Shown here: piece after piece, positions 13,162 through 40,789 of the stretch | Position numbering within the stretch: the stretch's first letter is position 1 | Layout: each line of letters opens with the position of its first letter | DNA from: an uncultured Phycisphaerales bacterium | GTDB taxonomy: Bacteria > Planctomycetota > Phycisphaerae > Tepidisphaerales > Tepidisphaeraceae | DNA: 64,000 bases | Reading direction: 5' to 3' | Assembly (NCBI GenBank): GCA_963758525.1 | Contig: CAVWVQ010000003.1 | Coordinates: 3,680,001-3,744,000, forward strand | Notes under the pieces: model-generated | What the model saw: the letters and a program-made list of their open reading frames with translations, nothing else | What the model was told of the DNA's origin: nothing | Database searches by the model: none | Position numbers and translations under genes: made by a program

Positions 13162-14535
13162 ATGGCGAGCGTGAGTGACGAAAAACAACCTGAGGTGTGG
13201 GACGCAATCATCATCGGCGGCGGCCCGACTGGAGCGATCGCCGGCCTGGAGCTCGCGCGGCGCGGACGCCGCGCCCTCATCTTGGAAAAGGCGGAATTCC
13301 CGCGATTTCACGTCGGCGAATCGCTGCTGCCGGCGACGCTCGATCTGCTTAAAGAGCTGGGGCTGGAGGCAGAACTGCGGAAGCTGCCGCATGTGAAGAA
13401 GTTCGGTGCGGATTTTGCGATGGGGGGCAAGGGACTGCCGACGGAGATCGATTTTGCGCACGGGTATTGCCGGTCATTCGAGACGTTTAACATCGAGCGG
13501 TCGCTCTTTGACGCAATGCTTCTGCGCGAGGCGGAGAAGCGAGGCGCCCAAGTCCGGCAAGGGACGGCTGTCAGACGGATCGTGTCACTTGCCGATGGCG
13601 ACGTGTGCGTGGAGACGGATGCGGGGGAGGTTCGCGGGCGGTATTTGCTCGACGCGAGCGGGCAGGGCTCCGTGGTCGGCCGGCATCTGGGAACACGTCG
13701 CCCGGCTGAAGAGTCGTACCTCCACAAGGTCGCATACTTCAACCATTTCGAGAATGTATCGCGTGCCGACGGCATCAAGGGAGGCAATCCGCTCATCGCG
13801 ATGATGGACGAGGGTTGGTTCTGGCTCATTCCGATCACCGAACGTCGCACCAGCATCGGCATGGTGATCGATGCCGACACGGCCCGGCGCATCTCTCGCG
13901 AGGAAGGCGTCGCGCCGGATCGCATGCTCGCGTGGGGGCTGGATCGCTGCCCCGCGATGCTCAAGCGATTGCGTGATGCAATTCGGCCGCAGACGAACAA
14001 TGTTGCCGCGGATTTCAGCTATCGCTGCCGGCCCTACGCGGGGGAGGGTTATTTCCTGGTGGGCGACGCGGCGGCGTTTATGGACCCGATCTTTTCAACC
14101 GGAATCTTTGTCGGCACCCAGGGAGCGATGGCGACGGCCCGCCTGGTGGACGACATCCTTGCCGGTCGCATCAGCGCTTCGCGGGCGCGCAAACAGTATT
14201 GCCGCCAGTTCGAGCAGTGCACCGACACGCTCTTCAAGCTCATCGGCCAGTATTACGATCACTCGTTCCGCGAATTGTTCCTGCAGGGGTCCGGTCCGCT
14301 GGCGGTGCATCGCGCGGTGATCGGGGTCCTGGCGGGGAATGTTTTTCCGCGTCCGCCATTGAAGCTGCGATGGCGATTGTGGGTGTTCGATCAGTTCGTG
14401 AAGATCAATCGCAGCCGCCGGTTGGTGTCACCGCGACGAAGGTTTTCGCTGCTCAAGCAGACCGTGCCGTCCGCGGGTGCTGCGCCAATGATCGCAGTGG
14501 GCACTGGAACCCCGGGCGATCTCCCGCCGGTCTAG
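13162..14535 (+). CDS. Flavin-dependent halogenase-family protein
   Basis: GGGPTG, FPRFHVGESL, KKFGA (putative catalytic Lys), WFWLIP (WxWxIP), GDAAAFMDPIFSTG. Confidence 0.8.
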   Translation: MASVSDEKQPEVWDAIIIGGGPTGAIAGLELARRGRRALILEKAEFPRFHVGESLLPATLDLLKELGLEAELRKLPHVKKFGADFAMGGKGLPTEIDFAHGYCRSFETFNIERSLFDAMLLREAEKRGAQVRQGTAVRRIVSLADGDVCVETDAGEVRGRYLLDASGQGSVVGRHLGTRRPAEESYLHKVAYFNHFENVSRADGIKGGNPLIAMMDEGWFWLIPITERRTSIGMVIDADTARRISREEGVAPDRMLAWGLDRCPAMLKRLRDAIRPQTNNVAADFSYRCRPYAGEGYFLVGDAAAFMDPIFSTGIFVGTQGAMATARLVDDILAGRISASRARKQYCRQFEQCTDTLFKLIGQYYDHSFRELFLQGSGPLAVHRAVIGVLAGNVFPRPPLKLRWRLWVFDQFVKINRSRRLVSPRRRFSLLKQTVPSAGAAPMIAVGTGTPGDLPPV

Positions 14536-14682
14536 AGCGAAGCGCAGCGGAGCGTTCGAGAGCGCTCCCGAGGCGCTCCTGCGGCTTAGCCTGGCGCATC
14601 CTGATCTTCTCCCCATTCCCCTTGCAAACGATTTCACGGTCTTCTAAGCTGCAATGTTCCTAAGGAAAGGGTTATCAAGATC

Positions 14683-14967
14683 TTGGATGCAGTGCGGAAT
14701 CAATCTCTCGACGAAATTAAGATCGAATTGAAACGGCTTCTGGTGGAAAATCTCTCGCTGGAAGACGTAAAGGCTGAAGATATTTCCGACGATGCAAACC
14801 TCTTTGGCGAAGACGGGATCGGGCTCGATTCGCTCGACGGGGTTGAGGTGGTCGTGCTGCTCCATCGCCAGTACGGGCTGGACGTGAAGGCAATGCAGAA
14901 GGGGCGCGACGTGTTCCGCTCGATCAATACCCTGGCGCCCTACGTGCTGGCCAACGCGACCAAGTAA
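14683..14967 (+). CDS. Acyl carrier protein 1
   Basis: LFGEDGIGLDSLDGVE phosphopantetheine motif. Confidence 0.9.
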   Translation: MDAVRNQSLDEIKIELKRLLVENLSLEDVKAEDISDDANLFGEDGIGLDSLDGVEVVVLLHRQYGLDVKAMQKGRDVFRSINTLAPYVLANATK

Positions 14968-14985
14968 CAATTCGCGCGATTCATC

Positions 14986-16290
14986 ATGACACGCTCACCG
15001 ATCTGGATTGCGGGCGTCGGGGCAGTATGCGGAGCTGGTGACGATATCCCCTCGATTCTCAGCGCGTTCTCGACCGGCCGACGCAGGCCCGTGAACACGC
15101 TTCCCTTTAAAAGCTCCGTGGTGTGCCCGACATTCCAGGTTTCGGCGGATTTGCCGGTGCTTCCTGAACGATACAACAGCAGTCGCAGCCTCCGGATGAC
15201 GATCCGGGCTGTGCGGGAAGCGCTGGAAAACGCGGGGATCCGGCGATTGGGCGCTAACAGTCCGTTGCACAACCCCGCTCCGAATCTGAGCTACTCCGAA
15301 GGCTCGGATCAGGCGCCGGGAAATCCGAGCGTTCGGAGTACCTCAGACTCGGCGTGGAGGGGCTCCGAGTCGGGTTCTAACGTCCGCGTCGGCGTCTGCA
15401 TCGGAACGACGGTGGCGTGTCAGTTGAACAGCGTTTCGTTTTACGGCGCCTATCGCGGCGGGCAGGAACCGCCGCTCGACGCGGTCTGGAACTATCTGCA
15501 TTCGAATCTGGCGCAGGCGGTCGCGAGGTTGCTAAAGCTCAGCGGCCCGCGGATGACGGTCGTCAACGCATGCTCATCGGGCACCGACGCGATCGGCGTT
15601 GCCGCGAGCTGGATTCGCGCCGGTCTGTGTGACATCGCCATTGCCGGCGGCGCGGATGAATTGCACCCGGTGCCGATGTCGGGGTTCTGGTCGCTGGGGG
15701 TGATGAGCACCGAGCCGTGCCTGCCATTCGATCGCAACCGCAGCGGCTTGAATCTGGGAGAAGGCGCCGGGATCGTCGTGCTGGAGTCCGATGCGCACGC
15801 CAAGGCGCGCGATCGTCGCAATCAGTTTGAGGTTGCGGGTTTCGGCTCCGCTTGCGACGGACATCACCTGACCGCGCCGCATCCCGAAGGACGCGGGCTC
15901 GACGCCGCGATTCGCGCCGCCCTCCAACAGGCGGGCATTGCGCCCAATCAGATCGCGTTCGTCAATGCGCACGGCACCGCGACGCACGACAATGACCGTG
16001 CCGAAGGGAAAGTGCTGGCACGTCTCTTCGGCTCTGATGTGATGCTTCTCTCCACCAAAGGATACACCGGCCACGCCCTGGGGGCGGCGGGGGCGCTGGA
16101 AGCGGTGTTCACGCTGCTGGGCCTGCGGGAAAAATGGATTCCGCCCAGCGCGGGATTCGAGCAGCGCGACGACGATATTGGCGTTGCCCCTGCCGCGCGT
16201 CGCAGGTCGATTGACGGCAACTACGCGCTTTCCACGTCGCTCGCATTTGGCGGCAACAACGCGGCGCTGGTCATCAGGAGGCGCGCTTGA
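14986..16290 (+). CDS. Beta-ketoacyl-ACP synthase (active C-H-H) with 41-aa repeat-derived insert
   Basis: NACSSG, AHGTAT, GHALG, AFGGNN. Confidence 0.9.
   Translation: MTRSPIWIAGVGAVCGAGDDIPSILSAFSTGRRRPVNTLPFKSSVVCPTFQVSADLPVLPERYNSSRSLRMTIRAVREALENAGIRRLGANSPLHNPAPNLSYSEGSDQAPGNPSVRSTSDSAWRGSESGSNVRVGVCIGTTVACQLNSVSFYGAYRGGQEPPLDAVWNYLHSNLAQAVARLLKLSGPRMTVVNACSSGTDAIGVAASWIRAGLCDIAIAGGADELHPVPMSGFWSLGVMSTEPCLPFDRNRSGLNLGEGAGIVVLESDAHAKARDRRNQFEVAGFGSACDGHHLTAPHPEGRGLDAAIRAALQQAGIAPNQIAFVNAHGTATHDNDRAEGKVLARLFGSDVMLLSTKGYTGHALGAAGALEAVFTLLGLREKWIPPSAGFEQRDDDIGVAPAARRRSIDGNYALSTSLAFGGNNAALVIRRRA
15254..15381. repeat. In-frame palindromic insertion inside ketosynthase
   Basis: 30-bp inverted arms 15280-15309/15323-15352 (3 mismatches); CTAAC direct repeat at 15254 and 15377, 123 nt apart. 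Confidence 0.75.
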
Positions 16291-17150
16291 TTCAGCCAAT
16301 GGGAATCCTCGGCATCGGCGCGATCACCCCCTTCGGCAGAGATCTCGCGCAGGTTGCCCGGCACGTGCAGGAATCGGGCCGCAATCCGCCCAGCGGGCGG
16401 CGCGTCAACGATGAACTTTTGGTGGACCCGGCCATCAGCAAGCGAATGCGACGAGCCGATCGCTTTTCCCGGATGGCTGCCGTCGCCGCGATTGACGCAT
16501 GGAAACAGTCGAGCGGCGCCTGCGAGGATGTGCCCAGGGAACGCATCGGGCTGATCGTGACCTCCGGCTTCGGTCCGCATTGCCGCGGATTCCGATTCCT
16601 CGATGGAATGCTCGATTGCGGCGACAGTGCCGCCTCCCCCACGGATTTCTCTCACTCCGTTCATGGCGCCGCCGCCGCGTACATCACCGAACTGCTGGAA
16701 CTGCGCGGACCGTCCCTGAGCACGACGGACTTTGAAGTCGGATTCGAGGAAGCCGTCCTGCTCGCGCAATGCTGGCTCAATGACGGCACGTGCCAGCGCG
16801 TCCTGGTGGGGGCCGTCGAGGAACTGGGCGACGTGCTGCTGCATTGCGTGGCGCGCATGATCGCGCCGGAACAGTCAATGATTCTGGGCGAGGGCGCTCT
16901 CTTTTTCATGCTCGGGCCGGAGGCCGCCGGCGCGTTTGCGAGTCTCGACGCAGTTGCCGGGCCCCGGGCCGACGAGCTACGAATTATCGATGAATCTGAA
17001 AATCACTTCTGTCGCTCGGCGACGGATTCTGCCTTCCGGTTGCTCGCGACGGTGCTTTTGCCGCAGGTTGAAAATGCCCGGGTGGTTGGCGCATCGTGCG
17101 GCTTACGGGAAACTTCATTGGGCGTCACCCGTCGAAGCCCGATGATCTGA
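16287..17150 (+). CDS. KS chain-length-factor-like protein
   Basis: MRRADRFSRMA, SPTDFSHSVHG; no catalytic Cys-His-His; overlaps KS stop. Confidence 0.8.
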   Translation: MIQPMGILGIGAITPFGRDLAQVARHVQESGRNPPSGRRVNDELLVDPAISKRMRRADRFSRMAAVAAIDAWKQSSGACEDVPRERIGLIVTSGFGPHCRGFRFLDGMLDCGDSAASPTDFSHSVHGAAAAYITELLELRGPSLSTTDFEVGFEEAVLLAQCWLNDGTCQRVLVGAVEELGDVLLHCVARMIAPEQSMILGEGALFFMLGPEAAGAFASLDAVAGPRADELRIIDESENHFCRSATDSAFRLLATVLLPQVENARVVGASCGLRETSLGVTRRSPMI

Positions 17151-17170
17151 TTGCGGAGGAAGAATTTCAG

Positions 17171-17479
17171 ATGCTCCAAGCCAGCGATATTGAAGATGTT
17201 CAGAAGCAACTCTGCGAGGAAATTCGCGTGTTGATGTCGTTGAAGCCCGGCGCGGTTCTTCCCGACACCAGCCTGGCGGGCTTGGGCATCGATTCGCTGC
17301 GATTCGTTTCGCTGCTGATCGTCATCGAGCAGAAGTTCGGCGTGAGCCTGATGAAGGTGGGACTGAAAAAAGAGGACATGCAGTCTGTTCGCACGCTCTC
17401 CTCGGCGATTTGCGCGGGCGCAGCGCTTGAGGCTTTCGCTTCCCTATTTCCGCTCGCGCCGCTACCTGAGCGGCGTTGA
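17171..17479 (+). CDS. Acyl carrier protein 2 (true end probably ~17430)
   Basis: LGIDSLRFVSLLIVIEQKFG; tail overlaps next gene, probable 1-nt error. Confidence 0.8.
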   Translation: MLQASDIEDVQKQLCEEIRVLMSLKPGAVLPDTSLAGLGIDSLRFVSLLIVIEQKFGVSLMKVGLKKEDMQSVRTLSSAICAGAALEAFASLFPLAPLPERR

Positions 17480-18761
17480 CTGGATGATGGGCGCGATGGA
17501 CTACCTGGCCATTCGCACCACCGGCATCGGCGCGCTCTCGCAGGCGATTCTCGACGTTGCGGGAAAGATCCCTGAGCCGGCGCTGCGCTCGGCCCTCGAT
17601 CAGATCTCGGATTGCTTTCCGCTCGTGCATGGCCGGGTGGCACGCGATTGTTTCAACCTCGCGCCATTCTGGAAAGTTTCGCGAAACGCCCGCGCGAAGC
17701 GGCTTGTGTTAAAGGTAGTGGACCTTTCCCAGGGCTCGGATACCGAAGCCGAGCGACTGCTCGCCGAGCACGTCAACACGCGCATGCAGCCGCGCTTTCA
17801 GCACCTGCGGTTTTTGCTGATTCATGTGGGCGAAACCCGGTCGCTTCTGGGGATGGTCTTCGACCATAAATTGCTGGACGCCTTCGGAGCCGAGTCATTC
17901 CTCCGGCTCATCGATCAGACTTCGCAGGGGAAGCTGGGGGAAATCGCGCCGCTGGTGAAGACCGCGGAACCCGCCCAACTCGATCACTGGATGCGCCGCT
18001 TTCAGTCCGGCAAGACCGTGAACGAGAGGCTCTTCAAACTGGGCCAGCGCGACCTTTCCGCGCTGCAAATGCCCGCTCCGGGCGGGTCGCACCGAGTCTG
18101 CTTTCTGCACGAAAAGCTGACCGTGCAGGAAACCGAGCACGTCCGCCAGCGATCCGGCGAAGAATGCGGCATGCCGATCCTGCTTCCCTCGACCGCCGCG
18201 CGCGCGGTCCTTGCCATGAAGCAGGCGATTCCGAATCCCCCGCTGGCGGGAACGCAGCATCTGGTTTTCACCTCCGCCAGCACGCGATCGCCGGGCCAGG
18301 AATGGGATGGACTGTTCTTCAACCAATTGTCGTTTCTGCTTTTCTCGGTGCCGGGGGAAGCGCCAACGTCGCCTGCGCCGCTGGCGGTGCTGCTCCGCGA
18401 CGAATTCTTCGACCAGATGAGAAGCGGCATGCCCGCCGCGCTGCAGGACGCGACGATATTGATGCGCATTTGCCCCCACTGGCTTGGAAGCCGGCTGATG
18501 AAACGCTTTTTCAAAGGCCGCGTTTGCTCGCTCTACTTCGCCTGCCTGCGCGAAACCGGCTTTTCCCAGAAGAGCTTCATGGGATTGCCGGCCGTCGATC
18601 TGATTCACACACCCACCGCTTTCGCGCCCCCCGGATTGAATTTGTGCATGACGTTTTTTGATGACCATTTCAATCTGGTGCTCTCGTATCTCGATGGGGC
18701 GATGCAGGAGAGCGAAGCCCGCGAGATGATGAGCCGATTTAAGTCGATGCTGATTGCCTGA
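17427..18761 (+). CDS. Condensation-domain-like / CoA-dependent acyltransferase
   Basis: 444 aa, FPLVHGR, HKLLD (HxxxD) motif, C-terminal PPGLNLCMTF..LVLSY. Confidence 0.6.
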   Translation: MRLSLPYFRSRRYLSGVDWMMGAMDYLAIRTTGIGALSQAILDVAGKIPEPALRSALDQISDCFPLVHGRVARDCFNLAPFWKVSRNARAKRLVLKVVDLSQGSDTEAERLLAEHVNTRMQPRFQHLRFLLIHVGETRSLLGMVFDHKLLDAFGAESFLRLIDQTSQGKLGEIAPLVKTAEPAQLDHWMRRFQSGKTVNERLFKLGQRDLSALQMPAPGGSHRVCFLHEKLTVQETEHVRQRSGEECGMPILLPSTAARAVLAMKQAIPNPPLAGTQHLVFTSASTRSPGQEWDGLFFNQLSFLLFSVPGEAPTSPAPLAVLLRDEFFDQMRSGMPAALQDATILMRICPHWLGSRLMKRFFKGRVCSLYFACLRETGFSQKSFMGLPAVDLIHTPTAFAPPGLNLCMTFFDDHFNLVLSYLDGAMQESEAREMMSRFKSMLIA

Positions 18762-18819
18762 GTGCCGGGCCGGTATGTCAGGGAAATAAGCGAATCGCAG
18801 TTGTGACGCCCAAATCCTC

Positions 18820-18936
18820 CCCCGTGGCACGGGCATCTTGCCCGTGTTGGCGACTTGAGCAGAAAAAAACCGTTGTTACCAAAGCCTCCCGTCAGCACCA
18901 CGCTCCCAACACGGGCAGGATGCCCGTGCCACGGGG
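18820..18936. repeat. REP doublet (family C) between convergent genes, possible bidirectional terminator
   Basis: 31-bp arms CCCCGTGGCACGGGCATC(T/C)TGCCCGTGTTGG, 1 mismatch. Confidence 0.85.
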
Positions 18937-18949
18937 AACGGCCCTGAAA

Positions 18950-20389
18950 TCACGCTGGCGATTGTCGATTCCTTGCGAGTTTGCCGCTGACTGTTTTGGG
19001 AAGGGCGGAAACGATCTCGAACTCAGCCGGCACTTTGTAGGAAGAGAGCCGCTCGAGGCAACGTGCGCGAAGTGACTCGACGGTGGCAGCATCGCCCGCA
19101 TCGGCTCGAACCACGACTTGGGCCGCCACCGTCTGCCCAAACTGCGCGTGTTCGCGTCCCCAAACGAGCGATTCGGTGACGCCGGGCAGCGCATTGATCG
19201 TCTCTTCGACCTCCTCGGGGAAGACTTTCATCCCAGCGCACACGATCACGGTCTTGCCGCGGCCCAGCAGCGTCAAACGTTCTTCCGCGTCCAGCCGTCC
19301 GAGGTCGCCGGTATGAAACCAGCCGTCGTCGAGACATTCCTCCCGCAGTCTCCAGGGAGAAACGTAGGCATCGAACATTCCCTTTCCCTTGAGCAGCACC
19401 TCACCGATGCCATCGCGATCGGGGCTGGCAATGCGAAGCTGATAGTCGGGCAGGATTCGGCCGACGGAGTTTTCTTCCGCGTCATGCGGATCGGTGTTGA
19501 TGAACGGCAGGCCGACTTCGATGATCCCATATGCTTCGGCGGGAATGACGCCAAACTTGTCCGCGAATCGTTTCGAAATGTCGCGGGGCATCTTCATCGC
19601 AGTGCTGATCGCGAGCCGTACCTTCGAGAGAGATGCAGGTGCTACCAGGTCCGAAGCGCCCAGCAGGTAATAGTGGACGGGCGACGCGTAGATCAGCGTG
19701 ATCGGGAAACGCCCGGCCGCATCGAGAACCGAAAACGGAAAATTGCGATTTGCGACGATGATCGTCGCGCCTTTTCGCAGGAACAGCAGAATCGACACGA
19801 CGAAATGATGGCTCATTCCCAGCACCCAGAGAATCACGTCCCGATCCGTCACACGCAGTCCCTGATTGGCCGCATCCGTGCGCTCGATGATCGAGCGATG
19901 GCAAAGCACAACGCCCTTGCTCTCGCCGGTGGTGCCGGAAGAGAATCGAATGAACGCAGGTTGCAGCTCGCGGCATCGCTGATCCAAAGCCGAACCGGCG
20001 CGGCGCGGTTGCCAGATGAACATGTCGTCGAGCGTCTCGAACGCCGGTTCATCTGCCGGACGCGGCAGGTCACGATGGGACAGTATTCCGTGCACATCGA
20101 TGCGGTCGACCGTTTCCTCAATCTCGTCTCGCGTCAACGTATCCGCAATCGGAACGACGGCGGCGCCGCTTTGCAGGATCGCCAATGCTGCGACGACATA
20201 ATCAATGCCGTCGCTGCACCGCAGTGCGATGCGACGACCGATGCCGATGTCGCGGCCTGCGAGCGTCCGGCTCAGGTTCGTGATGTGCGCCAGCAGTTGT
20301 TCGTAGGTAATCGACTGCTCGCCCTCGACGATGGCCGCGCGCTCGCCCAACGATCGAGTCTCCTCCCGGATGGTGTCGACGATGTTCAT
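18950..20389 (-). CDS. AMP-dependent acyl-CoA/ACP ligase
   Basis: FSSGTTGESKG, AYGIIE, WFHTGDLG, LPKTVSGK. Confidence 0.9.
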   Translation of the reverse strand: MNIVDTIREETRSLGERAAIVEGEQSITYEQLLAHITNLSRTLAGRDIGIGRRIALRCSDGIDYVVAALAILQSGAAVVPIADTLTRDEIEETVDRIDVHGILSHRDLPRPADEPAFETLDDMFIWQPRRAGSALDQRCRELQPAFIRFSSGTTGESKGVVLCHRSIIERTDAANQGLRVTDRDVILWVLGMSHHFVVSILLFLRKGATIIVANRNFPFSVLDAAGRFPITLIYASPVHYYLLGASDLVAPASLSKVRLAISTAMKMPRDISKRFADKFGVIPAEAYGIIEVGLPFINTDPHDAEENSVGRILPDYQLRIASPDRDGIGEVLLKGKGMFDAYVSPWRLREECLDDGWFHTGDLGRLDAEERLTLLGRGKTVIVCAGMKVFPEEVEETINALPGVTESLVWGREHAQFGQTVAAQVVVRADAGDAATVESLRARCLERLSSYKVPAEFEIVSALPKTVSGKLARNRQSPA

Positions 20390-21574
20390 GCAGTCTTCGC
20401 TCGCGATGCTGCCAGTGTGTAGACGAGGATGGTCAGAGTCGGAGCGATGGTGAAGGCCACGATGTGCGATCCCACAAACCACCGCAAGTGCGGCCCAGCC
20501 GACGGTGGCAGAACGCGGTCCGCGACGCGCAGCGAGAATCGCGGCACTGCGGGAAACATCGTCATCGCGACAACGAGCAGCGCGATCGCCTTGTTCAGAT
20601 GCAGTCGGCCGGCAATATAAACTACGGCGATTGGTCCCCATGGCCAGAAAACGATTCCCAGCAATGCCGACAATCCAGCGGCGGCGGCGACGCCCATCGG
20701 GGAGCAGAGTCCGCGCAGCCAGGTGACGGCTGTGTCCACGTGTTCGGGGGCAATATTGTGGTGCGGGCTTCCAGCCTGCAGCTTCTTTCCCCTCCCCTGG
20801 TACTCCGGGGGGCGAAGAAGGCGTCCGGCCGCGGTACTTTTCAGCAGGGGATGCGGAATCGGCAACAGCTCGCGGGCCACGAGCTTCGCATGCACCAGCG
20901 AAATGCGGGCGTTATCGCGAATGGGATGGAAGCTCGAGACACGTTCTGCCGCGTCGGGATACCAGACGCGGATGGGCAGACTTTTGACGTTCAACCCGGC
21001 CCACAAAGCGCGGGTGATGATTTCCATCTCAAAGTTGTAATGCCGCGACTGGATCGCCAGTCCGCTGATGTGCCGCACCGGATAAGCGCGAAAGCCACTT
21101 TGGGTGTCGCGGACGACTACACCGGTTTCGACGCCGATCCAGAAATCCGAGAAATCGCGCCGAAAAGGCTCGATCGCGGCATCGGGCCGCTGATCTGTTC
21201 CCGCCGTCCAATTAGAATCGTGTCGGGGGAAAGTTCTGGCAGGAAGCGCGGAATATCCTCGGGAAAGTGCTGCCCGTCTCCGTCGAGCGTGATCAAATAC
21301 CTGGCTTGCCCCTTCGCGGCAGCCTCAAAGGCCGTAGCGAGCGCCGCGCCTTTTCCGAGGTTCACCGGATGACGAATCACGGTGACCTCAACATCTTTCA
21401 ACAGTGTCCGCAGATCCGCGTCGGTGCTGCCATCATCGATAACGAGCACATTGAAAAGTTGCGCCGCGCTCGTTTGACGACATCGACGATCGTCGCGGCA
21501 TTGTTGTAAACCGGGATAGCGCACCACGTCTGCGTCTCCGGAGCCGCGGACGTGATCGAAAGCTTTGGCATCAT
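20386..21574 (-). CDS. Glycosyltransferase family 2 with C-terminal membrane domain (two frameshifts, ~21465 and ~21160)
   Basis: IPVYNNAATI / VIDDGSTD..NLGKGAAL..TLDGDGQH / DTQSGFRAYP..FEMEII spread over three frames. Confidence 0.8.
20756..20812. repeat. Two fused REP half-elements (families B and D) inside GT2 ORF
   Basis: TTGTGGTGCGGGCTTCCAGCCTGCA matches the 12993 arm; TTCCCCTCCCCTGGTACTCCGGGGGG matches the 27700/28511 family. Confidence 0.7.
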
Positions 21575-30952: not shown

Positions 30953-30956
30953 CCAT

Positions 30957-33016: not shown

Positions 33017-34186
33017 TCACCGTGTCGCGAGCTCGCCCGCTTTCGCGCCGGTCGCGAGGCAAATCCCTCCAACGCGGGTCGACGCCGCTGCGGCGCGGGT
33101 TGCGGAAATGCAGGTCCCGCCGGCGAACAGATTTTCGACCACCGCGCTCTGCAGCGCTTCGGGCGGGATGTCGTAGTGATCGCCAGGCGGCGGGTAGTCG
33201 TAGGACGGGCCCTTCTCCGAATCCCAGTTTTCGATCGGCCACCAGGCGTGAATCGCGTCGGGGCCGCGCTTTTTGCCGGAGAGTACGTCTGATTCGGTTA
33301 CGAGATATTTGCCACGCAGGCGTCGCCCGTCGCGGCGCAGGGCATGGGGTGACATCTCGATGATGGTCGCTGAGGTAAACGCGGCAATGCTTTCGCGGAC
33401 TTCCAGAATGACGCTGCGAACGAAAGGATTTGCCTGTTCGGGTGAAAATGCGTTGGGCGGAATCGCGAGCTTGAGCACGCCTTCGCCGGGGCTGGGGCCG
33501 GGATAGAAGACCGCGAATCTTGCGGCGTGAGGCAGCGATCCTTCGATGACAGCCTGATTGAGCGCATACGGAATCTGCAGGCGCAGCAGATCGGCGTCTC
33601 CAGTCAATCCCGCCCAGCGGATGGCATATCCGCCCAGCATGTCGGTGGAAGCGCGATCGGGCGGTTGCAGGGCGTCTTCGCCGACCAACTGCAGTATGTT
33701 GCCCCCGCCGGTGCAATCGACGACTGCGTTGACGGGAAACGTTCCGTCGACAGTCCCGGAAAGTCGCAGGGAAATGATGCGATCGCCCTCGCGGCTTACG
33801 GCAATCGCGCGGGTGTCCGTCCGAAGATCGACCTTTGAGTCGGCACAGATATCCGTCAGCGCGCTCTCCCACGCTGACGTGGGAAATTCGAGCACGGACG
33901 CGTGCCCGAACGTTCGCGGAACGACGCCCGACGGGGCGTTGCGGACCATGCGCGTTACCACTTCGCGCTGCAAGCCGGCGTTCAGCGTGTCAGCGGGCGC
34001 CGACGGAGCGGCGGCGTAGAGCCCGCAAAGAGAGCGGTGCATGGCGGCGGTCACGGAGCCGCCCAGACGATTGCCAGCGTCGATCAGAAGTACAGCGGCG
34101 CCGCGCCGCGCCGCGGCCGCGGCGGCGCAGACGCCGGCGGGGCCGGCGCCGACGACGGCGATGTCATATTTTTGTCGCGGCAGCAC
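33017..34186 (-). CDS. FAD-dependent oxidoreductase
   Basis: DIAVVGAGPAG, VVDCTG, RRLRGKYLVT, NLFAGGTCISA. Confidence 0.85.
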   Translation of the reverse strand: MLPRQKYDIAVVGAGPAGVCAAAAAARRGAAVLLIDAGNRLGGSVTAAMHRSLCGLYAAAPSAPADTLNAGLQREVVTRMVRNAPSGVVPRTFGHASVLEFPTSAWESALTDICADSKVDLRTDTRAIAVSREGDRIISLRLSGTVDGTFPVNAVVDCTGGGNILQLVGEDALQPPDRASTDMLGGYAIRWAGLTGDADLLRLQIPYALNQAVIEGSLPHAARFAVFYPGPSPGEGVLKLAIPPNAFSPEQANPFVRSVILEVRESIAAFTSATIIEMSPHALRRDGRRLRGKYLVTESDVLSGKKRGPDAIHAWWPIENWDSEKGPSYDYPPPGDHYDIPPEALQSAVVENLFAGGTCISATRAAAASTRVGGICLATGAKAGELATR

Positions 34187-34196
34187 GGAGTGAATC

Positions 34197-34598
34197 TCAT
34201 CGCGGGAAACCGGGATCCGTTGGATCGTAGTCGACTTCCATCACGCTGTAGCCGGAGGTGAAGGCGCTGTCCTGGGAGTAGACGATTTCCCCGATTCCCT
34301 TGTAATAGGCGGTCACGCGGGAGTTGTCGCCGCCGTAATGGAACGGAATCCATGCTTTGCCGGTGACGTATGCATGCTGGGAGGTTGGGGGACCGATGGT
34401 CGCCTGCACCTGCTCCATGCTCATGCCGTTTTTCACTTTCGCGAACGGGCTGTCGGGGGGAATGGGAACGGCCGGCGCGGTGGCGGCGGGAGCTTCGGCG
34501 GGCCTTGCCGAGGCCGAGCTGGAATTGCTGGAGGAGCACCCGATCAGCAGGCTCGCTGGAAGTACGACGGCGGCACCTATAATGCGTTTGTTGAACAT
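34197..34598 (-). CDS. Small lipoprotein (SmpA/BamE-like domain)
   Basis: Lipobox LLIGC, KVKNGMSMEQVQATIGPP. Confidence 0.7.
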   Translation of the reverse strand: MFNKRIIGAAVVLPASLLIGCSSSNSSSASARPAEAPAATAPAVPIPPDSPFAKVKNGMSMEQVQATIGPPTSQHAYVTGKAWIPFHYGGDNSRVTAYYKGIGEIVYSQDSAFTSGYSVMEVDYDPTDPGFPR

Positions 34599-34644
34599 GG
34601 CGCGGTTCTCCATGAAATGTGGTTTGGCGATAAGGAAAAATCTA

Positions 34645-35880
34645 TCACCGCGGCATGGTACAGGCAATAGCGGCATTGATCCCGCCGAAAGCGAAGCTGT
34701 TCTTGAGGAAGGCATCGAACCTCGCGGCTTTCTTCTCGCGAACGTGGTTGATGCCGGCGCAGGCCGGATCGACCTCCTCGAGATTGTGCGTGGGGTAGAT
34801 CGTCTGGCTTCGCATCATTTCGATGGTGGCCGCTAATTCGATCGCGCCCGATGCGCCCAGCGTGTGTCCCATGTTCCCTTTGAGACTGCTGACCGGTACG
34901 TCGGGGCCGAAAACCGCCGCGATGGCGCTGGCTTCGGCGGCGTCTCCCTGGGGAGTGCCGGTCGCGTGCGCGCCGACATAGCCGATGTCGCTGGGCGAAA
35001 GCCCGGCGGATGAGAGCGTCGTCCGCATGCAGACTCGCATGGAAGAGTCGTCCGACTGACTGACATGCACGCCGTTGCTGCAGGTGTGATACCCGACCAC
35101 CTCGGCCAGAATGTTGGCTCCGCGACGCTTCGCGTGCTCGAGTTCTTCGAGAACGATGACGCCGGCACCTTCGCCGCAGACCAGGCCGTCGCGCTGCGCG
35201 TCAAACGGGCGCGGCGTGCGCGAGGGGCTGTCGTTAAATTTGCTGGAGGCAGCATAAAGGATGTCGAAAGAACCCACGACCGTCTCGTGCAGCTCCTCAC
35301 CCCCGCCGCAGAGAAGAACGTCCTGCCGCCCGAGCCGGATTTGATCGTATGCGGCCCCAACTGCCTGCAGTCCCGACGCACATGCAGCCGATGTCGCGGA
35401 GACGACACCTTTGATGCCGAAATATTGCGCCACGTTGAGGGCGACGGTGTGCGAGACGCATCGGAAAAATTCCGAGGCGCCCAACAGCATGTACTCACTT
35501 TTGGCCAGCAGCAGCTCGTAGGTGTGCGTGATCGCCTGCGGGCTTCCGGTGGTGGATCCCATGATGCATCCGAAGCGCGGATTGTCGGGGATCGTGGCCG
35601 GGTCGATCTGCGCATGTTGCAGCGCCTGGACGGCGGCTTGCACGCCGAAGATGCTCATCGTGCTCATCGTCCGGCGGGTCGCGCGGGGGATCCCCTTGGG
35701 ATCGCGCAGCTCGATCGACGCCCCGACCTGGCAGCGAAGCTTGCCGAAGCGGTTCCATGAAGGAGGCATCGCCCGGGTGGCGCAGACACCGGCCTCGAGG
35801 CCTTGCATCATTTCGGTCACGCTATAGCCGATCGGAGATACGACGCCGTATCCGGTTATGACGACGCGGTGGAAAGACAT
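34645..35880 (-). CDS. Beta-ketoacyl-ACP synthase (FabB/FabF/ApeR-like)
   Basis: RVVITGYG, SAACASG, AHATGT, GHTLG, NSFAFGG. Confidence 0.92.
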   Translation of the reverse strand: MSFHRVVITGYGVVSPIGYSVTEMMQGLEAGVCATRAMPPSWNRFGKLRCQVGASIELRDPKGIPRATRRTMSTMSIFGVQAAVQALQHAQIDPATIPDNPRFGCIMGSTTGSPQAITHTYELLLAKSEYMLLGASEFFRCVSHTVALNVAQYFGIKGVVSATSAACASGLQAVGAAYDQIRLGRQDVLLCGGGEELHETVVGSFDILYAASSKFNDSPSRTPRPFDAQRDGLVCGEGAGVIVLEELEHAKRRGANILAEVVGYHTCSNGVHVSQSDDSSMRVCMRTTLSSAGLSPSDIGYVGAHATGTPQGDAAEASAIAAVFGPDVPVSSLKGNMGHTLGASGAIELAATIEMMRSQTIYPTHNLEEVDPACAGINHVREKKAARFDAFLKNSFAFGGINAAIACTMPR

Positions 35881-37376
35881 GATTTCCCGGAAAGATAATC
35901 CTTAAACACATCGCGCCCCAGAAGACTTCGGCACACAAAGAACGCCGAGGTCATCGCTCCAAGCACCCCCGGCAACAGCGCGCTTTGGCCCGCCGCATAT
36001 AAATTCGAGAGCGGCAGCCGACCGGCGACATTAAACTGCCCGATTTTCTGACGAATGCCATAGGCGCTCCCATCAGGGCTGTGCAAATAGTCGCGGTACG
36101 TGAGCGTTGACGCGGAGTCGATCACGCGCGTTTCCCGGCATTCTGGAAGATGCTCGCGGATCCGTCCGAGGACCGATTCGGTCCGCAGCCTTTTATACTC
36201 AGCGTATTCCCGCGGCCGGCGTTTGAGCTTCGTCGCATTCCATCGATCGGTCGTTTCCGTGAAAGCCACCTCCAGCGCAGTCACCGTATGCACCGGGCCG
36301 CTCGACCCGCGCTCGCTGCTGCGCAGCACCATCATCGGCCCGTCGATCGGCTCGGGCGACCGGCAGGTCAGCATCTCATTCAAATCGGTATTCGGCAGAA
36401 TCGACGCCAGCGTGATCGCGTCCTTGCCCGCGGGGGTGTCCAGCGCACCGTAGAGCGTGAAAAAACCGTTGGTCGATTCAAAATCGTTGACGCGATTCGC
36501 AAAAGCTTTGGAAATGTGCTCCCTGGGGAGAATTGACAGAATGCTGCGCGGATGAATCGTGAAAATGCACCCGGCGGCGCTAACCTCCGTGCCGTCGGTC
36601 AATGCGAAACGCATCACTTTGCGTTTCTCGACATCGAGGCATTCCTGGATCGTGGTGCGCGTGCGGATTTCGACGTTATCCCGACGCAACACATCGACCA
36701 GCGCATCGACGAAGGCGTCGCCCCCATCTTCCACGCGCGCAAGCGATTCCTGCAATCCGAAGCAGACCCGGCAATGGGTTGCAAACGAGACTTCATTGGG
36801 CCGGGTTCCGTAACACATGCACAGGCCGCCGAGGATCGTCTGCAGCATTTGATCTGACGTGCAGTCGTCAAGGACGGTCTGGAGCGGAATGGTGTCAGCC
36901 TCAAGCGGCGGCGGAAATTCATCGAAGCCGGAGACGGTGAGCGTTGGGGTCGCATCGATGACCGCCTGGAATTTTTGGAAGTAACGGTCAAGGCCGGCGC
37001 GCTCGCGCGGGAAATCGCGCTTGAGTTTTTCGCGGACGATTTCCATACCGCAGGGGATGACGTACTGGGCTCCCAGTGAGGGGAAGATCATGCGATGGGA
37101 CGCGTCGCGCGGGAAAAACAGCGGGCGAATCTGATCGCGGACGCCGAGGATGGAAAGGAGCGTGTCGAGCACGCCATTGCGCTGGTCGTTGAATCCGCCG
37201 GTGAAGTGGAAGCCGACATCGTAGGGGATTCCCTCCACGCGGAAGCGCGCCAGTGATCCGCCGAGAATGGTCGCTTTTTCCAACAGCAGCACGCGCTTGC
37301 CGTGCTGGGAGAGGACGCGGGCGGCGGTGAGCCCGGTGATGCCGCTGCCGACGACGATGTAATCGTAGTTTTTCAT
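35856..37376 (-). CDS. Phytoene desaturase/retinol saturase-like FAD oxidoreductase
   Basis: VVGSGITG, YDVGFHFTGG, TYRDYL..GSAYG, NLYAAGQS..PGVLG. Confidence 0.85.
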   Translation of the reverse strand: MKNYDYIVVGSGITGLTAARVLSQHGKRVLLLEKATILGGSLARFRVEGIPYDVGFHFTGGFNDQRNGVLDTLLSILGVRDQIRPLFFPRDASHRMIFPSLGAQYVIPCGMEIVREKLKRDFPRERAGLDRYFQKFQAVIDATPTLTVSGFDEFPPPLEADTIPLQTVLDDCTSDQMLQTILGGLCMCYGTRPNEVSFATHCRVCFGLQESLARVEDGGDAFVDALVDVLRRDNVEIRTRTTIQECLDVEKRKVMRFALTDGTEVSAAGCIFTIHPRSILSILPREHISKAFANRVNDFESTNGFFTLYGALDTPAGKDAITLASILPNTDLNEMLTCRSPEPIDGPMMVLRSSERGSSGPVHTVTALEVAFTETTDRWNATKLKRRPREYAEYKRLRTESVLGRIREHLPECRETRVIDSASTLTYRDYLHSPDGSAYGIRQKIGQFNVAGRLPLSNLYAAGQSALLPGVLGAMTSAFFVCRSLLGRDVFKDYLSGKSCLSTASS

Positions 37377-37410
37377 TGATCCGGGCTGCGGCGCGGGCCT
37401 CTATGCAGGA

Positions 37411-37440
37411 ACGCGCTCCGCTGCGCGTCGCGGCCAACCC
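37411..37440. repeat. Single family-E REP arm
   Basis: ACGCGCTCCGCTGCGCGTCGCGGCCAACCC matches the 44405 and 51448 arms. Confidence 0.75.
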
Positions 37441-37474
37441 GTAAAGACACATCACAGGCAGCTTGGATGGGCGA

Positions 37475-38209
37475 TCAGGTCGCGAGGCCGCCGTTGATTC
37501 CGATGACCTGTCCATGAATATACATGGAAGGTTCACGACAGAGAAACTCAATGACGGCGGCCACGTCGTCCACCTGCCCAAATCGGGCCAGGGGGATCAT
37601 CGGGAGAATCTTGTCCTTCGGCAGATTCGCGGTCATGTCGGTTTCGATCAATCCCGGCGCAACCGCGTTGACGCAGATGTTTCGCTTGCCCACTTCGCGG
37701 GCCAGCGCCTTGCACGCTCCGATCAAACCCGCCTTGGCAGCCGAGTAATTCACCTGCCCGGCCTGGCCTACCTGCCCGGATACCGACGACACCGCCACAA
37801 TTCGGCCGCGACGGGCCCGCAGCATCGCGAAAAGCACCGCGTTGATTACGTTGTAAAAGCCATCGAGATCGGTCCGAATGACAGCCGTCCATTCTTCGGG
37901 TTTCATCCAGACCATCAGATTGTCGCGGGTGATTCCGGCATTGAAGACGACGATCTCCGGAGACCGCTCTTCCGCCCGGCCGCGCAGCGCCGCGTCGGTT
38001 GCCCCGCGGTCGCTGACGTCGAAGCAGAGCAACTCGCACTTGCGCCCAAGCTGCTCGATCTGAGCCTGTGTTTCGCGGGCCTGCTCGTGATTGCTGCGGT
38101 AGGTCAGCCAGATGTCGCAGCCTGATTTGGCCAATCGGATGGCGGTTGCCCTGCCGATGCCGCGGCTGCCTCCGACGACGAGCGCGACAGTGGGCTGGTC
38201 CTTTTCCAT
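37475..38209 (-). CDS. fabG: 3-oxoacyl-ACP reductase (FabG-like SDR)
   Basis: GGSRGIG, NAGITRD, YSAAK, NAVAPG. Confidence 0.9.
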   Translation of the reverse strand: MEKDQPTVALVVGGSRGIGRATAIRLAKSGCDIWLTYRSNHEQARETQAQIEQLGRKCELLCFDVSDRGATDAALRGRAEERSPEIVVFNAGITRDNLMVWMKPEEWTAVIRTDLDGFYNVINAVLFAMLRARRGRIVAVSSVSGQVGQAGQVNYSAAKAGLIGACKALAREVGKRNICVNAVAPGLIETDMTANLPKDKILPMIPLARFGQVDDVAAVIEFLCREPSMYIHGQVIGINGGLAT

Positions 38210-38221
38210 GGGGTGTCTATC

Positions 38222-38249
38222 ACTATACCGCACGCCACACTGGCAGCAA
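38222..38249 (-). promoter_or_regulatory. Putative sigma-70 promoter of the long minus-strand operon
   Basis: TTGCTG-N16-TATAGT, 12 nt upstream of the fabG ATG. Confidence 0.35.
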
Positions 38250-38322
38250 CGCGTTGCACCGTCGCATGTTGCATCACCGCGGCTTCAATCGAATAATCGC
38301 GGGCGTGTTGTCAGATGGATCG

Positions 38323-39084
38323 GTGATCCCCGCGATTGAGTTGTCGGGCATTGTCCTCTTCGCCGGGATCGCCATCAGATGGCTGGTGCGGCGGCTTCTG
38401 CTTGCGTGCCTTGGCGTGAAATCGAACAGCGCGCTCGCCAGCGAGCCGATGGGTCGCGTGCTGCGTCGCTTTGAGAAAATGCGCACGTCCGTCTGGATGT
38501 TCGCGTGGTTCAAGGTGCGGCTCGATCCGATGTTTCGCGAATTGCCCGCGCTGCTGAAGGAACTGCCTTCCCCCCAGGCGATTCTCGATATCGGCTGCGG
38601 GCATGGCATCGCAGGTTCGGCGCTCCTCGAATGGTGCCCCGGCTCGACGATTGTCGGCATCGACCCGAGCGGATCGCGCGTGCGCGTCGCGTCGAAGGTT
38701 TTCGCCGGCCGCGGTCGGGCGATCCGGGGCGCCGTTCCCGATCTGCCGATCGAGCACCTCACCGGGCGCGTCGATGCGGTCCTTATTCTCGATGTCATCC
38801 ACTTTCTGACCGGTCCGCAGCTCGAAGCCACGTTTCGGCAAGTCCGCCAGCGCCTCGCCGAGGGTGGCTGGATCATCATTCGCGTGTCCATTCCCGAGGC
38901 GCCTTCAAAATCGCTGTTGTTTCGTCTCGAACCAATCCAACGGAGCTTCACGCGCGGCCGGGCGTACTACCGCACAGGCGACCGTATCGAGCAGATGCTG
39001 AAAGACGCGAAGTTCACCGTAAGGGAGCGTCAGATGTCCGGCATAGGCAGCGAACTCTGCTGGTTTATCGCGGTCGCAATTTGA
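38323..39084 (+). CDS. Class I SAM-dependent methyltransferase with N-terminal TM (start uncertain)
   Basis: FAWFKVRLDP, ILDIGCGHG, ILDVIHFL. Confidence 0.8.
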   Translation: MIPAIELSGIVLFAGIAIRWLVRRLLLACLGVKSNSALASEPMGRVLRRFEKMRTSVWMFAWFKVRLDPMFRELPALLKELPSPQAILDIGCGHGIAGSALLEWCPGSTIVGIDPSGSRVRVASKVFAGRGRAIRGAVPDLPIEHLTGRVDAVLILDVIHFLTGPQLEATFRQVRQRLAEGGWIIIRVSIPEAPSKSLLFRLEPIQRSFTRGRAYYRTGDRIEQMLKDAKFTVRERQMSGIGSELCWFIAVAI

Positions 39085-39091
39085 CTCACCT

Positions 39092-39146
39092 GTAGCACGG
39101 CCGTCCCGGCTGCGATTCGAAGCTGCAGCCGACACGGCTGTGCTAC
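39092..39146. repeat. REP-like hairpin after methyltransferase
   Basis: GTAGCACGGCCGTCCCGGCTG / CAGCCGACACGGCTGTGCTAC. Confidence 0.65.
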
Positions 39147-39254
39147 GAGAATGGCTCATTCGTTTCTCAGTGAAAACCTGAGTGCTTGATGCTTGGCCGC
39201 TCTATCTCGCGATCTGGTCGCGTGGTAGCTTCAGTGACCGCGGCGAAATCGACG

Positions 39255-39680
39255 ATGAATGGACAGGCTCCTCCCGTGAATAACATCCCGCATAAGCTCG
39301 GTTTGCTGCTCGCCCAGTTTTCGTACGTTCGGCGCACCATTGACAAGCGCGCCGACTTGCGCGAGTTTCGCGGCCGTCCGACGCTTCGCATCTTCGTGGG
39401 CGTCTTTGCGATCTGCCTCAGTTTTGCCATGTGCTGGCCGGTGATCACCGCGCTGGGAACGCTTGGCGTCTATCTCCACCGGCCGTGGCTTGTCGTGATC
39501 TTCGGCCCGATCGTCTGGGGTGTCTCCCACTGCGTCTTCCTCTTCGGCATGGCCCTTTCCGGCGAAAAATACCTCCGCATCCTGCTTCGCTGGCTCACGC
39601 GCGTTTGCGTCGAGCAGCTTCTCGCGATGGCGCCGCAGTCATCACAGCTCGGCTGCGTTGCGGTCGCGCAGCCTGAATGA
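39255..39680 (+). CDS. Hypothetical membrane protein
   Basis: Two to three hydrophobic segments, GPIVWGVSHCVFLFGM. Confidence 0.6.
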   Translation: MNGQAPPVNNIPHKLGLLLAQFSYVRRTIDKRADLREFRGRPTLRIFVGVFAICLSFAMCWPVITALGTLGVYLHRPWLVVIFGPIVWGVSHCVFLFGMALSGEKYLRILLRWLTRVCVEQLLAMAPQSSQLGCVAVAQPE

Positions 39681-39723
39681 CCGTGCTCGATCCCGCCCGG
39701 GCCACAGGTACCGCGAAATGCAG

Positions 39724-39818
39724 AACACGAATCGACACGAATTTTGCACGAATCCTCACGAAGCAGATTTCCCCGCCTTTATTCGTGAGATCGTGCTTCA
39801 TTCGTGCAGATTCGTGTT
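39724..39818. repeat. Inverted array of CACGAAT units (~10-bp period)
   Basis: Four CACGAA units then four complementary TCGTG units between convergent genes. Confidence 0.75.
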
Positions 39819-39877
39819 CCCTCTTCATGGATTGCGCGGCACCTGGCAGATCGACAGCGCGTGTTCGCGCAAGGTCT

Positions 39878-40789
39878 TCAATTCCATAAGTCGAAGAAAT
39901 TAAAAAACTGCCAGGGATGCTGGTCGACGAACTGTTCAAGGCAATCCGCAAACTGCTGTGCGTAGGGCGCGTAATGCTCCGGTATTCGCCCGAGGCCGGG
40001 CGGGACGTTGATCACCTTCGCCAATCGCATCTCGTACGATCGGTCGGATGTTCTCGATGTCAGCATCACCACGACCGGCATGCCGCTGGCTGAGGCAAGC
40101 CGGTATGGGGTGACCGGCAACTGGATCGTCCCGCCGAGGAACTGCGCGCTGACGCGATTGCGCTCATCGCCGAAGGTGCGGTCGCCCATCATGGCAACGA
40201 TCTCGCCGCGAAGCAGCGCCTGGGTCATGCGCATCACGCCGTCTAGCCCGGTCCGGGGATCGATGATCGTCGCCCGGTCCGGATCAAACATCGAAAGCGT
40301 CCGGCGCTCGGGGATGAGCACGAGCCAGAAGTGCTTTGGAAAGGTCCTGGTCGTTGACATTCCCACCTGCCAGCTGCCGGCATGGGAGTGCAGCATGATG
40401 AAACCGTTGTCACCCTGCGCCATGTCGGCAAGGCGTTGGCGGTCTGGCGAACGTGCCGCCAGCGCGTCTCTGCCGAGCACGCCGACTGCCGTGATATCCA
40501 CCAGCGTTTCGCCGAACGTGCGGATGAGCCGATAGGAATCGAGGAATCGTCGCAGTCGGCCGCGCCGTTCCGGAAACCGCCGATCCAGATAAAATCGGGT
40601 TCGCGCCCGGATCGAAGGGTAGAGCAGCACGTACCAGAGCGTGGCGAACCACGAAATGTGATACGCGCGGGTGAGACCACCCCAGCGGAGCAGCCAGCCG
40701 AAGAATCGGAAGTGCCACGCCGGGCCGACGTTCGGCTCCGACCACTGTCGCATGCTGGCAGCCGTGTTTTCCCGATCGTCGTCGATCAT
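39878..40789 (-). CDS. Lipid A lauroyltransferase-like acyltransferase
   Basis: HSHAGSWQ, GEIVAMMGDR, FLGG, HPWQFFNFFDLW. Confidence 0.85.
   Translation of the reverse strand: MIDDDRENTAASMRQWSEPNVGPAWHFRFFGWLLRWGGLTRAYHISWFATLWYVLLYPSIRARTRFYLDRRFPERRGRLRRFLDSYRLIRTFGETLVDITAVGVLGRDALAARSPDRQRLADMAQGDNGFIMLHSHAGSWQVGMSTTRTFPKHFWLVLIPERRTLSMFDPDRATIIDPRTGLDGVMRMTQALLRGEIVAMMGDRTFGDERNRVSAQFLGGTIQLPVTPYRLASASGMPVVVMLTSRTSDRSYEMRLAKVINVPPGLGRIPEHYAPYAQQFADCLEQFVDQHPWQFFNFFDLWN

Follow-up and report, generated by a model that had tools for sequence, protein, structure and literature searches.

A planctomycete gene cluster with a predicted aryl-polyene-lipid core and an unusual condensation cassette

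A 64,000 nt stretch of DNA from an uncultured Phycisphaerales bacterium (family Tepidisphaeraceae; assembly GCA_963758525.1, contig CAVWVQ010000003.1, positions 3,680,001 to 3,744,000), hereafter the window, carries within positions 13162-40789 a cluster of 27 genes that combines ketosynthases (KS), chain-length factors (CLF) and acyl carrier proteins (ACP) with acyltransferases, flavin adenine dinucleotide (FAD) enzymes, an exporter and a stand-alone condensation-domain protein of the non-ribosomal peptide synthetase (NRPS) type. The content of about 27 genes described in a first-pass annotation was recovered in full from open reading frame (ORF) lists, translations and Pfam/NCBIfam scans, including three ketosynthases, all with Cys-His-His, and two CLF-like proteins, which are short, KS-like and without the catalytic Cys and were recognized by PF13723 (CLF1) and by hhalign to KS2 (CLF2). 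Six genes lie on the forward strand over 13162-18761 and 18 on the reverse strand from 38209 down to 18950, and beyond 38209 follow a methyltransferase and a membrane protein gene on the forward and an LpxL-type gene on the reverse strand. The locus does not hold the whole gene set, since a polysaccharide deacetylase and a FlxY-like ligase are encoded on contig C2:379492-381667 of the same genome (G000; C2 and C5 are other contigs of it, and G and L numbers denote other genomes and loci). The genes of the cluster are the following.

13162-14535, +, halogenase-like flavoprotein (PF04820, PDB match, motifs and tree)
14683-14967, +, ACP1, ApeE-like (domain scan, ape comparison)
14986-16290, +, KS1, Cys-His-His, ApeO-like, with an in-frame repeat insertion of ~41 residues (15275-15357)
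16287-17150, +, CLF1, ApeC-like short KS domain without the catalytic Cys (PF13723; weak ApeC match)
17171-17479, +, ACP2, carrier of the condensation cassette
17484-18761, +, stand-alone NRPS-type condensation-domain protein, DHxxxD (predicted fold, Foldseek, invariant residues)
18950-20389, -, AMP-forming ligase of the condensation cassette; nearest solved relative malonyl-CoA synthetase
20386-21535, -, GT2 glycosyltransferase, hydrophobic C-terminus, like the N-terminal half of ApeJ, two frameshifts
21669-22290, -, CLF2, short, KS-like, predicted KS2 partner, frameshift near the N-terminus
22288-23411, -, KS2, Cys-His-His, own clade, frameshift near 23207
23408-23899, -, 4HBT thioesterase, ApeK-like
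23896-24285, -, dehydratase, ApeI-like
24289-24948, -, lipoprotein, weakly DUF3261/ApeN-like (E 0.028)
25119-27490, -, MMPL exporter, ApeM-like, frameshift near 26740
27809-28471, -, LolA-like chaperone, counterpart of ApeL; flexirubin LolA2 is the best NCBIfam model, scoring below cut-off
28669-30177, -, fusion of an ApeP-like dehydratase with a degenerate radical S-adenosylmethionine (SAM) domain (CxCxxC), SPASM intact
30161-30952, -, PlsC-type acyltransferase, ApeD-like
30957-31217, -, ACP3, ApeF-like
31365-32907, -, aromatic amino-acid ammonia-lyase with an ASG motif and the selectivity pair FH, frameshift near 32150
33017-34186, -, FAD oxidoreductase PF12831, directly after the condensation gene in distant operons
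34197-34598, -, small lipoprotein, kept in relatives
34645-35880, -, KS3, Cys-His-His, ApeR clade
35856-37376, -, CrtI/phytoene-desaturase-like FAD enzyme
37475-38209, -, FabG ketoreductase, ApeQ-like (46%); best NCBIfam model FlxB, below cut-off
38356-39084, +, SAM methyltransferase, start approximate
39255-39680, +, small membrane protein, no family assigned, kept in relatives
39878-40789, -, LpxL-type acyltransferase, like the C-terminal half of ApeJ

Counterparts were found for 16 of the 18 ape proteins of E. coli CFT073, the one characterized cluster with which a direct sequence comparison was made (BLAST, profiles), at 22-46% identity where measured pairwise. They are strong or clear for ApeR, Q, O, K, F, E, P, I, D, J, M and L, with 46% identity to ApeQ and profile E values of 1e-19, 1e-21, 2e-14, 2e-17 and 4e-38 for ApeE, ApeF, ApeI, ApeP and ApeM, respectively. 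The lipid-anchor enzymes are present as well, with the PlsC-type enzyme matching ApeD (E 1e-15) and the GT2 and LpxL-type enzymes matching the two halves of ApeJ, and every core class used to define ape clusters (bioRxiv 2020.12.19.423268) has a counterpart, a weak one in the case of the chain-length factor ApeC. Functions of the ape proteins follow the accessible part of PMC8253772, and the structure of the aryl-polyene lipid and the proposed roles of ApeD, ApeJ, ApeE and ApeF follow Grammbitter et al. (bioRxiv 2020.12.19.423268). In distant operons that run on one strand, GT2-LpxL-ACP1-KS1-CLF1 and KS3-ACP3-PlsC are adjacent, and both adjacencies match the division of labour between ApeJ/ApeE and ApeD/ApeF proposed there. 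Because 16 of the 18 ape genes have counterparts, the core is, as judged from its genes, the known aryl-polyene-lipid pathway, which bears out the aryl polyene/flexirubin-type core suggested earlier for a planctomycete.

The neighbourhoods of dehydratase and thioesterase, of MMPL, LolA and lipoprotein, and of acyltransferase and ACP are also found in the ape clusters of both E. coli CFT073 and Xenorhabdus doucetiae, whereas the gene order is different and the ApeJ function is split over two genes here. Extra in comparison with ape are KS2/CLF2, ACP2, the condensation protein, a second ligase, the lyase, the halogenase, the CrtI-like and PF12831 enzymes and the radical SAM/SPASM part fused to the ApeP-like dehydratase; the supplementary gene tables for flx and ape, which lie outside this comparison, could narrow this list. 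Neither gene-for-gene synteny nor high identity to the E. coli ape cluster, which would have spoken against the distinct pathway proposed in the first-pass annotation, was observed. Aryl-polyene genes are not new to the family, since a cultured member carries two antiSMASH arylpolyene clusters according to the accessible part of PMC13514998; related literature comprises the accessible parts of PMC3949708, PMC11266412, PMC11968836 and bioRxiv 2026.05.19.726425.

In a KS tree of 43 rows, a hand-picked subset, KS3 shared a clade with ApeR at 100/99 support (41% identity), and each planctomycete KS clade paired with the matching KS of distant operons; the best match of KS1 was ApeO (36% identity). 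CLF1 was recognized by PF13723 (E 6.5e-8) and weakly matched ApeC (E 4e-4), and CLF2, in which the catalytic Cys is absent, aligned to KS2 in hhalign with a probability of 78%. A complex model of KS2 and CLF2, for which the orthologues from G041 were used, scored 0.93 versus 0.00 for the best control, with KS1 not tried as a partner; the runs agreed in at least 97% of contacts and the predicted local distance difference test (pLDDT) value of the partner was at least 88. The mark was reached by 116 of 157 solved pairs and 2 of 215 mismatched pairs, and because like KS-CLF complexes have already been solved, the score shows likeness only, in which sense the model supports the KS2-CLF2 pairing. 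This third ketosynthase with its own chain-length factor is one of the unusual parts of the cluster, together with the CrtI-like enzyme, the substrate of which was not fixed by a PDB search, and the cassette of ACP, condensation protein, FAD enzyme and ligase.

Using KS3, 29 loci were found, 19 of them at 76-83% in Tepidisphaeraceae, Tepidisphaerales, Phycisphaerales or Phycisphaerae, seven at 53-57% in Omnitrophota, Victivallales, Desulfobacteraceae, Kiritimatiellales and other planctomycetes, a further two in Deltaproteobacteria at 44-48% and one at 31%, a distribution that points to a host within the Tepidisphaeraceae. The order ACP1-KS1-CLF1-ACP2-condensation gene facing ligase-GT2-CLF2-KS2-thioesterase-dehydratase-lipoprotein-MMPL was kept in 14 of 14 close relatives, one contig ending before ACP1, and genome loci of an older form carry FabG-CrtI-KS3-ACP3-PlsC-radical SAM/dehydratase-LolA-MMPL-lipoprotein-dehydratase-thioesterase-KS2-CLF2 on one strand. 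The condensation gene occurs in 22 of 141 family genomes, the FlxY-like ligase in the same 22 and the lyase in 21 of them (E up to 1e-100); these carriers belong to eight genera, with 13 in one genus, so that kin are not independent. The distance from condensation gene to lyase is within 30 kb in 9 of 21 carriers and 276-323 kb in two, and in 10 the genes are on different contigs. Two other genomes of the window's own genus gave no match, and an even sample of the phylum gave matches in 4 of 400 other genomes. Among 80 metagenome loci, 45 of at least 5 kb were mapped, including 22 distant ones (26-33%), in all of which the FAD enzyme directly follows the condensation gene, with the ligase next in 20. 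In the 14 distant loci that cover ACP1, the genes before it are LpxL and one for a B12 radical SAM enzyme, in most cases together with GT2, and in no case a halogenase gene. Co-inheritance across the 141 genomes and the distant operons, which have the shared genes all on the same strand, indicate that the two arms of the cluster belong together as one system, and the co-occurrence of the arms in relatives, which the first-pass annotation had made a touchstone of its proposal, was thus found. A chimeric assembly of the two arms was rejected on the gene order conserved in relatives.

The strangest part of the cluster is the condensation cassette, not the halogenase. The HxxxD acyltransferase of the first-pass annotation has the xHxxxD motif and the two-lobed fold of an NRPS condensation domain (model pLDDT 91.7), and its transfer role is a prediction from this model. 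The top Foldseek matches were all of the condensation type (best 8S6L, template modelling (TM) score 0.75), ESM Atlas agreed, and D127, H128 and D132 were invariant in 97/97 and 33/33 rows. The protein had no Pfam or NCBIfam match, and a plasmid search with a distant orthologue gave none; the stand-alone family comprises 383 clusters at 50% identity (E up to 1e-30) and is unannotated. The substrate of the cassette ligase was not fixed by the PDB search, malonyl-CoA synthetase being the nearest solved relative. No aryl-polyene cluster with this cassette was found in the literature searched, a scope that left out most subscription papers.

The halogenase-like protein aligned with the halogenase 3E1T as its best PDB match (E 4e-56). 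GxGxxG, a conserved Lys, WxWxIP and FxDPxFS, which we take to be the motifs of flavin-dependent halogenases, are kept, the first in 7 of 9 rows and the others in 9 of 9. In a tree of 30 rows, the 16 halogenases of this clade came out as a single group (100/99) within those of aryl-polyene clusters that bear a chorismatase and belong to the same family; this chorismatase was recognized at E 4e-41, below cut-off. By this placement, the halogenase derives from xanthomonadin-type clusters. With xanthomonadin/arcuflavin-type clusters, which are common in the same family, the cluster shares the halogenase clade, exporter, LolA and acyltransferase; it differs in that no chorismatase was found here, the starter likely comes from the lyase, and KS and CLF are separate rather than fused. 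A XanB2-type chorismatase (query, the G001 enzyme) gave no tblastn match at 1e-12 in the window's genome. A close halogenase copy was present in 14 of the 22 condensation-gene carriers and directly preceded ACP1 in 8 of 14 close relatives examined. The halogenase claimed earlier is therefore present with its motifs kept, but it is optional and of xanthomonadin-type descent; the lipid of this strain may well be halogenated. A xanthomonadin-type remnant with fused KS, LpxL and ACP-dehydratase lies at C5:15900-20022, and no chorismatase or halogenase was found beside it. A lone halogenase homologue, 52% identical, lies at L169:16504-17988 (G500), with no cluster gene in 40 kb.

The ammonia-lyase has an ASG motif and an FH selectivity pair, and a PDB search did not fix its substrate. 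It is kept at 72-91% identity in 21 of the 22 family carriers, often near the FlxY-like ligase, and in several relatives it is followed by both genes that lie on contig C2 here, the FlxY-like ligase (64-74%) and the deacetylase (48-58%); a GT25 gene of the relatives was not found in G000. Scored against the flexirubin models, intact orthologues reached 351 of 700 bits for FlxA and 426 of 520 bits for FlxY. The lyase with FlxY-like ligase, several KS, deacetylase, acyltransferase, LolA, glycosyltransferase and exporter are shared with the flx clusters of Chitinophaga pinensis and Flavobacterium johnsoniae, as far as the accessible part of PMC3992019 describes them, whereas all flexirubin NCBIfam models stay below cut-off here. 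In a search that covered DarB, the extra KSIII, but not DarA, the single PF08541 match in G000 (91% complete) was not taken as DarB because this sole KSIII-type gene adjoins a FabF-type gene. Flexirubin proper was rejected on the lack of DarB.

The fusion of a radical SAM domain with a dehydratase noted earlier is present, but the case for a radical enzyme is weakened: where close orthologues cover the site, CxCxxC stands in place of the canonical CxxxCxxC motif (12 of 12), and the glycine motif is absent, while the SPASM cysteines are kept. Five distant orthologues have the canonical motif in three cases and have lost it in two, and the radical SAM part is entirely absent in L084, L085, L025 and L031. 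The motif and these four loci make an active radical SAM-dehydratase doubtful, and the domain is probably without radical chemistry now. Likeness to the fatty acid synthase (FAS) II clusters of Kuenenia stuttgartiensis and Desulfotalea psychrophila, as given in the accessible part of Rattray 2009 (PMC2649909), extends to the CrtI-like enzyme, the radical SAM gene, a PaaK-type ligase, an Mmp-like membrane protein, a glycosyltransferase and KS paralogues with changed active sites, a link that rests on gene content and one hidden Markov model, not on sequence comparison; in contrast to those clusters, the B12 radical SAM gene TIGR04072 is missing here and the motif is altered. TIGR04072 gave no hit in G000 and hits above cut-off in 5 of 141 family genomes (G556-G559 and G019), and B12 genes from one close and one distant relative passed it with 569 and 623 bits (cut-off 360). 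The ladderane-linked likeness proposed earlier stands in that the cluster is a member of this broader group of FAS II clusters, as relatives carry TIGR04072. Ladderane synthesis was rejected on the missing TIGR04072 gene and the altered motif. A TIGR04072 gene lies at L009:2844-4220. Four of the eight carriers without halogenase have the gene, and in the fifth genome with TIGR04072 there are a halogenase and two copies of the condensation gene, a pattern we treat as a lead only because all five belong to one genus. Ladderane-like FAS II clusters without a known product occur in Desulfobacterota, Myxococcota, Verrucomicrobiota, Planctomycetota and Omnitrophota (accessible part of PMC9902471).

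Taken together, these genes suggest, with a probability of about 0.55 that refers to the lipid class, that the cluster makes an aryl-polyene glycolipid similar in kind to those with a solved structure from Xenorhabdus, with one extra acyl group, that is exported to the outer membrane. The ammonia-lyase would convert Tyr or Phe into coumarate or cinnamate, to be activated by the FlxY-like ligase encoded on contig C2; KS3 (ApeR-like) and KS1/CLF1 (ApeO/ApeC-like) would extend this starter on ACP1 together with FabG and the two dehydratases, and the halogenase would put Cl or Br on the ring on ACP1. A second conjugated chain could be built on ACP3 by KS3 and/or KS2/CLF2, its double bonds adjusted by the CrtI-like enzyme, before PlsC would place it on a lysophospholipid. 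GT2 would add an amino-sugar, to which the LpxL-type enzyme would attach the aryl polyene. In the least certain steps, the cassette ligase would load a small acid on ACP2, the FAD enzyme would alter it, and the condensation protein would transfer it either to an amine that the deacetylase has released or to a hydroxyl group, the acceptor being a guess. MMPL, LolA and the ApeN-like lipoprotein would export the lipid. The roles of KS, ACP and acyltransferases are assigned by homology and gene order. The product, held unpredictable in the first-pass annotation, is indeed unproven, but an aryl-polyene-lipid scaffold can be predicted from the 16 of 18 ape counterparts.

Several observations weigh against this interpretation. 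Identities to the Ape proteins are low overall, the matches to ApeC, ApeN, ApeB and ApeH are weak (E 3e-6 to 7e-3, versus 18 sequences), and no match to ApeA or ApeG was found among the cluster proteins by BLAST and profiles. The KS phylogeny proposed earlier grouped KS3 with ApeR as described but did not resolve KS1 against ApeO. The lyase falls below every NCBIfam cut-off, and its FH pair is described, in the accessible part of PMC5651878, as possibly intermediate between phenylalanine and tyrosine ammonia-lyases. A search of 10 distant carriers, several of them small genomes, gave no close orthologue of the lyase, with homologues of 33-38% in four, and the older operon may therefore work without a starter of the aromatic type. 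At E 1e-100, 8 of 22 carriers gave no halogenase match, and clusters that lack this condensation gene can have deacetylases too. Within the cassette, the model of the PF12831 FAD enzyme gave generic flavoprotein matches only, none of them close (best TM 0.49), and AzeD, the best structural match of the condensation protein, is titled a dehydratase, so that by analogy this protein could also dehydrate, besides the predicted formation of an amide or ester.

A different product would be a polyunsaturated or branched lipid of the membrane, non-aromatic or in part reduced, with lyase and halogenase as side additions. The distant operons, with TIGR04072 and other B12 radical SAM genes, canonical radical SAM motifs and the CrtI-like enzyme, would fit such a lipid, as would the lack of a halogenase beside ACP1 in 14 of 14 distant loci covering the spot and the polyunsaturated fatty acid route that Rattray et al. 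proposed for such clusters (accessible part of PMC2649909). We consider it unlikely here, where the TIGR04072 gene is missing, the radical SAM motif is altered and the lyase is retained in nearly all family carriers, often close to the FlxY-like ligase.

Less likely still, the locus would serve two products, with the left operon, ligase and FAD enzyme making a small, released halogenated acyl amide or ester and the remaining genes an ordinary aryl-polyene lipid. The left genes are transcribed towards the rest, the FAD-ligase-condensation cassette also occurs in differently arranged clusters (G157, G088, G164), and the lyase block is distant or on another contig in 12 of 21 carriers. However, the parts have the same presence pattern over the 141 genomes and run in the same direction in distant operons, the three KS have a single ketoreductase and a single pair of dehydratases between them, and the only exporter is a lipid exporter.

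That the lipid is made without a halogen, the flavoprotein serving the xanthomonadin-type remnant on C5 or acting as a hydroxylase, appears quite improbable. The descent of the flavoprotein from xanthomonadin-type clusters, its optional presence in carriers and the lack of a halogenase beside the C5 remnant are consistent with this idea, but the gene directly precedes ACP1 in more than half of the relatives examined, its motifs are intact and no chorismatase match was obtained in G000. Furthermore, G515 has a second halogenase copy inside its own xanthomonadin-type cluster, and three more carriers hold a second homologue.

Compared with intact orthologues, six frame changes affect five genes: GT2 (two), KS2, CLF2, MMPL and the lyase. 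As the neighbouring essential gene aspS (window 41050-42850, reverse strand) is also split, with its N-terminus in another frame, and the G000 assembly consists of 6 contigs, the breaks are probably long-read indel errors. In two public DNA runs only 0.16 and 0.08 of the words were present, no indel was among the listed differences and no listed piece bridged any break. Decay of the cluster in this strain, with no product, for which these frame changes, the repeat insertions, the inversion described below, the loss of the GT25 gene and the two displaced genes could be cited, is scarcely credible given the equally split aspS, the different scattered break positions in other few-contig genomes, the many intact relatives and the kept catalytic motifs; the cluster is conserved and probably functional. 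The 9.6-kb block 31365-40789, from lyase to LpxL, is inverted relative to relatives and is bounded exactly by a 41-nt inverted repeat with 15-17 genomic copies, which suggests that the inversion was repeat-mediated:

31309-31349, no strand, inverted repeat, left arm
40929-40969, no strand, inverted repeat, right arm

The KS1 insertion (15275-15357) is an 83-nt palindromic repeat with about 33 genomic copies that stays in frame and adds ~41 residues not present in orthologues, with the catalytic residues intact. Families of REP-like palindromes, with 27-164 genomic copies per family and some within coding regions, were observed at 12993-13050, 18820-18936, 20751-20848, 27528-27742, 28510-28623 and 39723-39819. 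A promoter/terminator scan of 12500-20000 gave nothing above chance.

The aryl-polyene core and halogenated aryl polyenes are already known; the uncharacterized element here is the condensation module. The distant relatives fall largely in groups with ladderane-like clusters and carry much of the aryl-polyene-lipid core, from which a polyene glycolipid, not a ladderane, is predicted as their product. Tentatively, the operon family might make an undescribed class of outer-membrane glycolipid, in which two polyene chains are accompanied by a third, tailored acyl group that is attached to the sugar via the free-standing condensation domain; versions from Desulfobacterota, Omnitrophota and Lentisphaerota would be tailored by B12 radical SAM enzymes, and the planctomycete lineage would have swapped radical chemistry for the lyase and an oxygen-dependent halogenase. 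If true, this would explain many of the ladderane-like clusters of non-anammox bacteria and would offer a tractable model for them. The sizeable, unannotated condensation family may add a new way of acylating lipids, and the halogenated lipid, if made, would be a lineage biomarker.

Elsewhere in the window, an RNA-repair operon at 6214-12370 on the reverse strand encodes in a row a Hen1 methyltransferase, two RlaP nucleotidyltransferases and a Pnkp ligase/phosphatase, and the region 49116-61315 on the forward strand encodes a DUF4159 protein, two long unannotated ORFs (1114 and 522 residues) and an RND efflux pair.

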